From the NCBI RefSeq assembly GCF_988243305.1, contig NZ_OZ547136.1: DNA of 64,000 nucleotides, one strand, 5' to 3'. This document shows, piece after piece, positions 1 to 3,640 of the stretch. Position numbers and translations under genes: made by a program. The notes beneath the pieces are model-generated. The model made no database searches, was not told where the DNA came from, and was given only the letters and a program-made list of their open reading frames with translations. Position 1 is the stretch's first letter. Each line of letters opens with the position of its first letter.

Positions 1-293
1 ATGATCTGCACAGCATTCAGCTTCCAGAATCCGTACACTTTTCCACTCACACAGCTTTCTCAAAATACAGCCTATTGCTCTACGCTTCTCTCTGTAGAAC
101 ACCTGTCTTCGGTATTTTGGCGCAAATACTATGTGATATTTACAGTTCCATCGGGTGTGCGCTAAGCTCTTTTCGTTCCCCATTGGGACCCCCTTTTGAT
201 TTCTTGTTTGACACTTGCAGTTGCCAGACCGCAAGGTGTTTTAACAAATCAAAAGGGGTTTTAATAACTGGCTCAAAGCTGAAAGCTTTCCGG

Positions 294-320
294 AACCCCC
301 AGCCTAGCTGGGGGTTTTCT
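294..320 (+). terminator. Intrinsic terminator-like hairpin (cccccagc / gctggggg) followed by TTTTCT; would end a plus-strand transcript coming from upstream of the window
   Basis: 8-bp GC-rich inverted repeat with 3-nt loop followed by T-run, read directly. Confidence 0.5.
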
Positions 321-325
321 GTGCA

Positions 326-360
326 CAATAAAAAACGGCAGGGGTATCTCTCCTGCCGTT
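326..360 (-). terminator. Intrinsic terminator of gltX
   Basis: Inverted repeat acggcagg / cctgccgt (335-342 / 352-359) followed on the minus strand by a T-run, immediately downstream of the gltX stop. Confidence 0.6.
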
Positions 361-377
361 TATCTTTTATGCGCTAA

Positions 378-1793
378 TTACTGCTGATTTTCGCGTTCAG
401 CAATAAAAGCCAGCGCTTTGTTGATACGCTCGATACTGCGGGTCTTACCGATTGCGTGAACGGTAACATCCAGCGCCGGAGACTGCCCCGCACCGGTTAC
501 GGCGACACGCAGCGGCATACCAACTTTACCCATCCCCACTTCCAGCTCATCCGCCGTCGCCTGAATAGCGTGATGAACGTTTTCAGCGGTCCAGTCAGTA
601 ATCGCGGCCAGTTTGTCACGAACCACTTCCAGCGGCTGACGCGCTACCGGACGCAGATGTTTTTTCGCGGCGTCGGCATCGAACTCAGCAAAATCTTCGT
701 AGAAATAGCGGCAGCTCTGTGCCATCTCTTTCAGCGTCTTGCAGCGTTCACCCAGTAGTTTCACCAGATCAGCCAGCTGCGGGCCGTTACGGGTATCGAT
801 ATTTTCCTGCTCAATGTGCCACTGTAAGTGAGTAGCAACATACTCCGGCGGCAGCGCGTTAATGTAGTGATGGTTCAGCCACAGCAGCTTGTCGGTGTTG
901 AACGCACTGGCAGATTTGCTGACGGCATTCAGAGTGAAGTATTTGATCATCTCTTCACGAGTGAAGATTTCCTGATCGCCGTGGGACCAGCCCAGACGCA
1001 CCAGATAGTTCAGCAGTGCTTCTGGCAAATAACCGTCATCACGATACTGCATTACGCTGACCGCCCCGTGACGTTTGGACAGTTTTTTGCCGTCATCGCC
1101 GTTGATCATAGAAACGTGCGCGTAAACCGGTACCGGCGCTTTCAGTGCTTTAAGAATGTTGATCTGGCGTGGCGTGTTGTTGATATGGTCTTCGCCACGG
1201 ATAACGTGGGTGATTTCCATATCCCAGTCGTCAACCACCACACAGAAGTTATAGGTTGGAGAACCATCGGTACGACGGATAATCAGATCATCCAGCTCCT
1301 GGTTGCTGAATTCGATCGGACCACGGATCTGATCGTCAAAAACAACAGAACCTTCCTGCGGGTTAGCAAAACGTACAACACACGGTTCATCATCAGCATG
1401 ATGCTCATGGCTGTGGCGGCAGCGACCGTCATAACGCGGCTTCTCACCTTTCGCCATTTGCTCTTCGCGCAGCGCTTCCAGGCGCTCTTTAGAGCAATAG
1501 CATTTATAAGCAGTGCCCTCTTCCAGCATCTGATCGATCACCGCGTTGTAGCGATCAAAACGTTTGGTCTGGTAGTACGGACCTTCATCCCACTCCAGGC
1601 TCAGCCAGTTCATGCCATCCATAATGGCTTCGATAGCTTCCGGCGTGGAACGCTCAAGATCGGTGTCTTCAATACGCAGCACGAACTCACCGCCGTGGTT
1701 ACGTGCAAAAAGCCAGGAGTAAAGAGCAGTACGCGCGCCGCCAACGTGCAGATAGCCTGTTGGGCTTGGCGCGAAGCGAGTTTTGATTTTCAT
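378..1793 (-). CDS. gltX: Glutamate--tRNA ligase
   Basis: 471-aa ORF; N-terminus [19 protein letters not shown] carries the class I HIGH-type motif (HVGG), KLSKR matches the KMSKS-type motif; recognised as E. coli GltX. Confidence 0.97.
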
Positions 1794-2715: not shown

Positions 2716-3600
2716 CTACTGCGCCAACGCCGCCAGCAGTTTAACCATCGCGGGCGTCACCTGCTGTGTTTCATAAACAATATATAAATCTGCAGGGATG
2801 CGCTGTTTGAGCGGACGGAAAATGACACCTGGCCAGTTCATTTGTGCGTAGCTGTCCGCTATCAATGTGATACCAATGCCCATACTGACCATAGCGAGTA
2901 CCGTTTGCGGTTCATTAACTTCGCGAATAACAACCGGTGAAAATCCCACCTGCTGGCAAACTCGCTGCAAAAAATCCCAGTCAGTGTAAACGGGCGGCAT
3001 TGTAACGAAATACTCGTCACCTAGCGCTTCCAGCGGGACGGTGGAAAATGATGAGAGATGATGCTCTTCAGGCATCGCCACCAGAAACGCCGATTCATGC
3101 AACCGTAAGCTGGTAAAACCTGCCGGTGGTTCTGTCGCCATTCTCCAGATTCCGGCATCGAGTTCACGTCGTTCCAGCAGGGCCATTTGCATCGCGGGCA
3201 TCTTTTCGCGAAAAAGAACGTCAACGTTAGGATTTTCCCTGAGGAATCGCCGCATAACCGGGCGCATCCGTCCCCACATTGCCGTTCCCACAACCCCGAG
3301 TTCAATCCGCCCTGCTTCTCCCCGACCTATTTGTTCAACCCGAGCCAATACATTATTTGCATTCACCAGCAATCGACGCGATTCTTCCATCAAGATTTTG
3401 CCCGCATGTGTCAGTACGACGCTGCGCGAATGGCGAATAAAAAGCTGCGTGCCGAGTTGATTTTCCAGCTCTTTAATATGAATACTGAGCGGAGGCTGAG
3501 ACATATTTAAACGCGCTGCTGCGCGACCAAAATGCAACTCTTCCGCTACGGCAAGAAAATAACGGAGCAACTTAAGATCTGTTCTATATACGCGTTCCAT
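2716..3600 (-). CDS. xapR: LysR-type transcriptional activator of xanthosine utilisation
   Basis: ORF with N-terminal HTH (LLRYFLAVAEELHFGRAAARLNMSQPPLS); start placed at MERVYRT (294 aa); the six-frame ORF extends 5 codons further upstream to 3615. Confidence 0.92.
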   Translation of the reverse strand: MERVYRTDLKLLRYFLAVAEELHFGRAAARLNMSQPPLSIHIKELENQLGTQLFIRHSRSVVLTHAGKILMEESRRLLVNANNVLARVEQIGRGEAGRIELGVVGTAMWGRMRPVMRRFLRENPNVDVLFREKMPAMQMALLERRELDAGIWRMATEPPAGFTSLRLHESAFLVAMPEEHHLSSFSTVPLEALGDEYFVTMPPVYTDWDFLQRVCQQVGFSPVVIREVNEPQTVLAMVSMGIGITLIADSYAQMNWPGVIFRPLKQRIPADLYIVYETQQVTPAMVKLLAALAQ

Positions 3601-3640
3601 AATTAAGTGCTCCATATAATAAATACATCGTATTAAATTA

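Follow-up and report, generated by a model that had tools for sequence, protein, structure and literature searches.

What occupies the 377 bp that lie beyond the gltX stop codon (380-378), up to the left edge of the window, by which we mean the whole 64,000-nt stretch of contig NZ_OZ547136.1 (RefSeq assembly GCF_988243305.1) analyzed here? The first-pass annotation had correctly counted these 377 bp and had taken them for a long 3' region in which a minus-strand terminator (326-360) stands back to back with a plus-strand terminator (294-320), with the 3' end of an upstream gene possibly entering from the left. We find that window 1-326 is, with a probability of about 96%, the left 326 bp of a ~711-bp IS200C element inserted between yfeD and gltX; IS200C belongs to the IS200 group of the IS200/IS605 family. 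The identity of the element, its protein family, its RNA-family match, the stability of its hairpins, its insertion point, and the empty site were all established in the present analysis. The element and its junction with the host comprise the following features.

378-1793, minus strand: gltX, glutamate-tRNA ligase, a 471-aa ORF (RefSeq annotation of the same locus).
333-361, both strands: native bidirectional intrinsic terminator of gltX (minus) and, before the insertion, of yfeD (plus) (fold and comparison with K-12).
327-331, minus strand: pentanucleotide target of the insertion, TTATT (plus strand, AATAA), which forms the distal end of the gltX terminator T-tract and abuts the left end.
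317-326: terminal 10 nt of IS200C at its left end (plus strand, TTCTGTGCAC), with the element boundary between 326 and 327.
294-316: IS200 left-end subterminal perfect palindrome, IS200 nts 12-34 (fold, pattern search, and PMC4513863).
1-183, minus strand: 5' part of IS200C tnpA (Y1/HUH transposase), codons 1-61, from the ATG at 183-181 past the left edge of the window.

A sequence search with window 1-400 finds IS200C copies in 2,174 of the 5,426 complete E. coli genomes, and the RefSeq label under these matches reads "IS200/IS605-like element IS200C family transposase." The copy in the window is ~99% identical to the annotated IS200C copies. No perfect match to window 1-400 exists among the 5,426 complete E. 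coli genomes; the best reaches 99.3%, the closest complete-genome copies differing at three positions. Relative to the copy in strain Ec42, the three differences all fall within the IS, one being synonymous, one replacing Ser by Cys at the N terminus of tnpA, and one lying in the leader. Over window 250-450, there is 100% identity to strain 98210, a genome with 35 IS200 places. Salmonella enterica IS200 and E. coli IS200C share with the element in the window the transposase family, the left-end palindrome at nts 12-34, the Shine-Dalgarno (SD)-sequestering stem-loop at nts 69-138, and the placement of the tnpA start codon relative to the art200 start, and apart from the three point differences and the rare yfeD/gltX site, there is no substantive difference. 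The element is already known, its position is rare but unremarkable, and the locus holds no new kind of system.

The minus strand of 1-183 translates as MGNEKSLAHTRWNCKYHIVFAPKYRRQVFYREKRRAIGCILRKLCEWKSVRILEAECCADH, in which NEK onward is the translation of 1-177 and the initial Met and Gly are read from codons 183-178. The N-terminal 59 to 61 aa match Pfam Y1_Tnp (E=5.5e-12; 46.3 bits, with a cutoff of 23) and NCBIfam transpos_IS200 (57.2 bits, with a cutoff of 55), and the full 152-aa TnpA from the same locus in Ec42 scores 130.7 and 147.7 bits, respectively. In Ec42, RefSeq places tnpA at 2725-3183 of the retrieved stretch (L001), and its end there corresponds to window 183. Only the first 183 nt of tnpA are in the window, whose edge falls at the first His of the HUH motif. 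Everything beyond, left of position 1 (the rest of HUH, the catalytic Tyr, and the right end), we infer from the nine genomes that carry the same junction. Neither a stop nor a frameshift interrupts the first 61 tnpA codons in the window, and the left end and leader are likewise intact. Two further ORFs, at 75-377 (plus) and 140-328 (minus), have no family match and are treated as noncoding or as annotation artifacts. RefSeq/PGAP also lists an 81-bp pseudogene in Ec42, "IS200/IS605 family transposase, incomplete," at L001 3297-3377 (plus), which equals window 297-377 and spans the left-end hairpin and the gltX terminator; its translation gives no Pfam match, and it is probably an annotation artifact.

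The point of insertion is seen by comparison with genomes in which the site is empty. In K-12 MG1655, the gap between yfeD and gltX is only 51 bp and includes the same terminator hairpin. The empty K-12 site reads TA/AATAAAAAACGG, and the occupied site reads TA-(AATAAATATCC...GTGCAC)-AATAAAAAACGG, the element standing in parentheses; aligning the two gives an inserted block of ~711 bp, the length of a full IS200 being ~707 to 711 bp, and no target-site duplication. When window 250-450 was used as the query, 5,329 genomes without the element aligned only from window 327 on, which independently supports the boundary between 326 and 327. The same junction is present in only 9 of the 5,426 complete E. 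coli genomes. One of these is Ec42, where the junction is as in the window and yfeD is followed by a complete 152-aa tnpA, encoded on the opposite strand, and then by gltX. Genomes with this junction carry the right end ATATCCTCCGGCATAGCCGGAGG. TTATT stands immediately 5' of the element on the tnpA strand, and the right end of the element also finishes ...ATATTTATT. Insertions at gyrB and sohB, compared with the empty K-12 sites, repeat the pattern; over the three sites, gltX, gyrB, and sohB, the element lies 3' of TTATT/TGTTT without duplication. A target that abuts the left end, with no duplication, is the mode described for the IS200/IS605 family (PMC6006769).

At the far end of the element in Ec42 (L001 2614-2655, ~385 to 345 bp left of position 1), the right end has the form CCTCCGGC-ATA-GCCGGAGG, followed by TTTTTC on the yfeD strand. 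This right end lies a few bases past the yfeD stop codon. To judge from these letters, the right-end hairpin and TTTTTC should replace the terminator lost by yfeD, whose native one is now across the element.

The two hairpins of the first-pass annotation are of different origin. Hairpin 333-361 has 12 pairs and folds at -20.6 kcal/mol on the plus strand (z -7.3) and -16.5 kcal/mol on the minus strand (z -5.3), and none of the shuffled sequences folds as well. Its tails, UUUUUUAUU on the minus strand and AUCUUUU on the plus strand, are T-rich in the DNA on both sides, making the hairpin bidirectional, and on both strands, it has the makeup of an intrinsic terminator, a G+C-rich hairpin plus a U-tract. 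It sits likewise relative to gltX in K-12 MG1655 (L003 2210-2250), without an IS200 there. The minus-strand terminator described at 326-360 is therefore real, lying at 333-361, but it is bidirectional and native to yfeD/gltX rather than specific to the minus strand, exactly the type of intrinsic terminator ordinarily shared by convergent genes. Hairpin 294-316 differs in being part of a mobile element and not of the host. It is a perfect 10-bp palindrome, AACCCCCAGC-CTA-GCTGGGGGTT, with TTTTCT next on the plus strand, and it folds at -20.7 kcal/mol (z -4.1) on the plus strand and -18.7 kcal/mol (z -3.1) on the minus strand; all of the hairpins fold far better than their shuffles. The hairpin and plus-strand tail reported at 294-320 exist, yet they are the IS200 left-end palindrome and no host terminator. 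This palindrome lies 10 nt from the element boundary at 326, and the element has no terminal inverted repeats.

By sequence, only the plus strand of 294-316, with its UUUUCU, fits the terminator pattern; no U-tract follows on the other strand, where CCGGAAAGC stands instead. Ellis et al. (PMC4513863) reported in 2015 that nts 12-34 act as a bidirectional Rho-independent terminator guarding against impinging transcription, an activity that in its bidirectional form is not obvious from the letters of 294-316. By analogy with IS608, 294-316 is presumably the hairpin that TnpA binds in single-stranded DNA. Folding with shuffles was used in place of a consensus terminator scan, which listed 333-361 on the plus strand only and missed 294-316, likely because two T's were counted into the stem, leaving four T's in the 8-nt tail window.

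Between the palindrome and tnpA lies a leader whose published anatomy maps onto the window without a gap. In Salmonella IS200, tnpA transcription starts at about nt 40, a stem-loop covers nts 69-138, and art200, also called STnc490, is a 90-nt antisense small RNA (sRNA) that starts at nts 153/154 and is complementary to the tnpA 5' untranslated region (UTR) and first three codons; its -35 box was noted to be good and its -10 box "almost unrecognizable" (PMC4513863). Processing of the tnpA leader in Salmonella also yields sRNAs that act in trans, tnpA-90/-110 (PMC5435999). Anchoring nts 12-34 at window 316-294, so that nt n equals window 328-n, gives the following positions.

~288, minus strand: tnpA transcription start (IS200 nt ~40; published coordinates mapped).
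184-288, minus strand: tnpA 5' UTR.
259-190, minus strand: long stem-loop (published coordinates mapped; 258-190 in our own fold).
183-181, minus strand: tnpA ATG (nts 145-147; mapped).
175, minus strand: end of the third tnpA codon (nt 153), in exact agreement with the publication.
~174/175-264, plus strand: art200 (STnc490) antisense sRNA, predicted here from mapped published coordinates.
139-168, plus strand: probable art200 promoter, with -35 TTTACA (139-144), an 18-nt spacer, and a weak -10 TAAGCT (163-168).

The stem-loop at 190-258 buries the SD sequence AAGGGGG (~189-195) and folds at -41.8 kcal/mol (z -3.4). The IS200 leader is also recognized by Rfam RF01405 (STnc490), which matches window 316-193 on the minus strand at 146.4 bits, with a gathering score of 56, over model positions 1-124 of 124 without a gap. 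As a side observation, this model, which takes in the left-end hairpin and leader, lies on the tnpA-sense strand, unlike the art200/STnc490 of the literature, which is antisense, and for this reason, the family name can mislead strand assignment. What the match identifies is the locus, rather than art200 as a transcript. A separate Rfam match in the window is an RtT-like element (RF00391) at 2480-2605 on the plus strand (51.6 bits, with a gathering score of 45), between the valU-valX-valY-lysV tRNA cluster (2052-2446), which it directly follows, and xapR (2716-3615, minus); RefSeq labels its Ec42 counterpart "RtT sRNA."

On the plus strand, 166-266 folds at -35.5 kcal/mol (z -5.1), and the predicted end of art200 follows hairpin 190-258 and a U-run at 259-262. 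A consensus promoter scan made no call for art200 or tnpA. TTTACA-18 nt-TAAGCT is a plausible art200 promoter, consistent with the published remark on the poor -10 (PMC4513863), and the TAA at 163-165 falls inside this putative -10. The suggestion that a small RNA might account for the gap before the terminator proves right for a different reason, as the literature's art200/STnc490 (PMC4513863) lies on the plus strand here. Likewise, a plus-strand transcript running toward gltX does exist according to the literature, although it would end at its own hairpin and U-run at ~262-264 and not near 320. Transcript ends, terminator activity, and art200 function are drawn from work on Salmonella IS200, and we infer that they would operate in the window copy. 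The region encoding art200/STnc490 and tnpA-90/-110 is conserved in the window, including the terminator-like hairpin and U-run; their expression and function, demonstrated in Salmonella and, with plasmids, in E. coli, are predicted for the window copy. The known trans target is invF, a gene of the Salmonella pathogenicity island SPI-1 that E. coli is not expected to have.

Could a plus-strand gene instead end at TAA 163-165, with a long 3' UTR or 3'-derived sRNA stopping at the 294-320 hairpin, as first proposed? The frame is indeed open, for 54 codons from position 1, and TTTTCT directly follows hairpin 294-316 on the plus strand. Yet the product of this frame (1-165) has no Pfam match, and an IS200 TnpA is encoded opposite; left of the window, genomes with the same junction carry the remainder of tnpA on the minus strand; and the whole block is missing in K-12 and 5,329 other genomes. 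We regard this reading as extremely improbable. The +1 frame is the noncoding antisense of tnpA and not the 3' end of an upstream gene, and the supposed 130-nt 3' UTR up to the terminator does not exist. The first-pass annotation had named a minus-strand gene on the left, with no plus-strand transcription into the region, as an outcome that would speak against it; only half of this holds, since the gene on the left is indeed a minus-strand gene, yet a plus-strand transcript remains to be expected. A second alternative accepts the IS200 but takes this copy for a defunct remnant, either a left end standing alone or an element whose tnpA is truncated, with hairpins and art200 as functionless relics. 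Only 326 bp of the element are visible in the window, one of the three positions at which the copy departs from its nearest complete-genome counterparts (99.3% identity over 1-400) carries the nonsynonymous Ser-to-Cys change, and IS200 has been described as mostly dormant. All nine same-junction genomes, however, have tnpA annotated under the match, that of Ec42 being full length at 152 aa, the part of the element in the window is undamaged, and genomic IS200 copies are generally well conserved according to the literature, so a remnant seems quite unlikely to us. The preferred reading remains an IS200C whose left 326 bp enter the window.

The question then becomes whether a host terminator beside the left end is peculiar to this site. 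At sohB, wzzB (two strains), and gyrB, the IS200C left end lies against an A-run, a G+C hairpin, and a T-run, and the terminators at these three loci are each different. As matches elsewhere reach window 367-372, hairpin 333-361 was considered as a part of the IS; this was rejected, sohB, wzzB, and gyrB each having a different terminator of its own, and the extension to 367-372 reflects megablast running through similar A-run/hairpin sequence. We then surveyed the flanks more widely by scanning one genome per species for the left-end palindrome, which returned at least 120 stretches. Taxa among the matches listed include Enterobacterales (with Y. pestis IS1541), Vibrio, Desulfovibrionaceae, Enterococcus, Clostridia, Peptococcaceae, and others. 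Of these flanks, among the matches listed, 81 of 109 unique ones (74%) have at least four A's in the first 7 nt and, beginning no more than 16 nt in, a perfect hairpin of 5 bp or longer, compared to 1.35% of random positions, and most of the remaining flanks have imperfect hairpins by eye. The first seven bases of the 109 unique flanks listed are 66 to 94% A, and G/C predominates from about position 9 to 10. Folded over 45 nt, the flanks have a median of -18.1 kcal/mol, versus -7.7 for random 45-mers (Mann-Whitney p ~1e-55), and the low folding energy is present in every taxon group. Terminators standing back to back are what an IS200-type insertion normally looks like. A preprint (10.1101/2025.07.22.666184) reports terminator enrichment upstream of IS200/IS605 elements, whose signal is the strongest, and a literature search for explicit IS200 terminator targeting returned nothing beyond it.

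The survey also yielded observations on the palindrome itself. Its 20 specified bases (AACCCCCAGC NNN GCTGGGGGTT) are identical in at least 120 stretches from many phyla, with carriers (L007-L100) in Ruminococcus, Peptococcaceae, other Bacillota, Enterococcus, Mailhella/Desulfovibrio, Oxalobacter, Vibrio, and many Enterobacterales, while the remaining left-end sequence of those elements diverges to ~75 to 85% identity. Many copies of the palindrome stand at contig ends, breaking assemblies. In Y. pestis NCTC5923 (L102, L103, L105, and L119), several IS1541 elements lie in direct tandem, with a left end against an AATAA-ATATCCTCCGG right end, as expected if the right-end hairpin and T-rich tail are themselves an acceptable target.

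Known relatives show both shared and distinct traits. Yersinia pestis IS1541 is 87.7% identical over window 2-326 and likewise has the left-end hairpin and flanks of A-run plus hairpin; it differs in its high copy number in Y. pestis and in having some tandem copies (left end against right end). IS608 and ISDra2 ("peel and paste") resemble the window element in having subterminal hairpins and no terminal inverted repeats, and differ in also carrying tnpB, where IS200 has tnpA only. Their targets are TTAC or TTGAT, with no reported need for an adjacent hairpin, whereas the IS200 targets here are T-rich (TTATT, TGTTT, and TTTTT) and nearly always follow a hairpin. They, too, insert 3' of a short specific sequence abutting the left end, without duplication (PMC6006769).

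How might such regularity arise? It is possible, though at somewhat less than even odds in our judgment, that IS200-group elements insert at intrinsic terminators by active targeting, in which case back-to-back hairpins would be a mark of the mechanism and not an accident; TnpA might recognize "hairpin + T-tract" in single-stranded DNA, beyond the bare pentanucleotide. A terminator hairpin with its 7- to 9-nt T-tract resembles the right end of the element, since that end is itself a G+C hairpin followed ~9 nt later by the terminus ...ATATTTATT. Targeting fits 74% or more of the 109 flanks, from Proteobacteria, Bacillota, and Desulfobacterota, as well as the tandem IS1541 copies and the fixed orientation. 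The juxtaposition could also be one of survivorship with no targeting of a hairpin plus T-tract, insertions beside terminators being harmless and therefore persisting while those in genes or promoters would be purged, and we hold this only tentatively as well. The preprint (10.1101/2025.07.22.666184) itself reads terminator enrichment as promoting persistence, and a T-rich pentanucleotide target would by itself often land in terminator T-tracts. Selection alone, however, would tolerate variable distances and both orientations, whereas position and orientation are very regular across the 109 unique flanks from many phyla, and the frequency of an A-run with a perfect hairpin and the depth of the flank folds are both far from their random values. 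The fixed distance and orientation favor targeting.

At the yfeD/gltX site, the minus-strand order from gltX is the stop codon, the native terminator (361-333) with its T-tract, the IS200 tip, and the palindrome (316-294), then a putative weak tnpA start at ~288, the leader stem-loop (258-190) that would hide the ribosome-binding site, and the tnpA ATG at 183. In the arrangement we propose, gltX transcripts would stop at the native terminator and the left-end hairpin would form a second barrier, so that tnpA would be undriven from outside. The transposase would be held down by its weak promoter, the SD-sequestering stem-loop, and pairing with art200 (~90 nt, ~174-264, plus strand), which would bind the tnpA leader and block translation. 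Plus-strand RNA leaving the element, as art200 read-through, would run first into the left-end hairpin (tail UUUUCU) and next into the native terminator, and gltX would in this way be shielded from antisense transcription.

For annotation, the gain is a known mobile element in place of a long 3' region, an unknown gene end, and an orphan terminator, with the coding strand corrected. As a rare polymorphism (9 of 5,426 complete E. coli genomes), the insertion could serve as a lineage marker. The locus also offers an example of an IS200 at the foot of a host terminator that would be doubly insulated, on both strands, at essentially no cost to the host. The regularity of the insertion context across the family merits a mechanistic test. 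If targeting is true, such an insertion would be harmless by design: the upstream gene would keep its terminator, tnpA would be shielded from read-through, and the right-end hairpin and T-run would substitute for the terminator of the gene on the other side, here yfeD.
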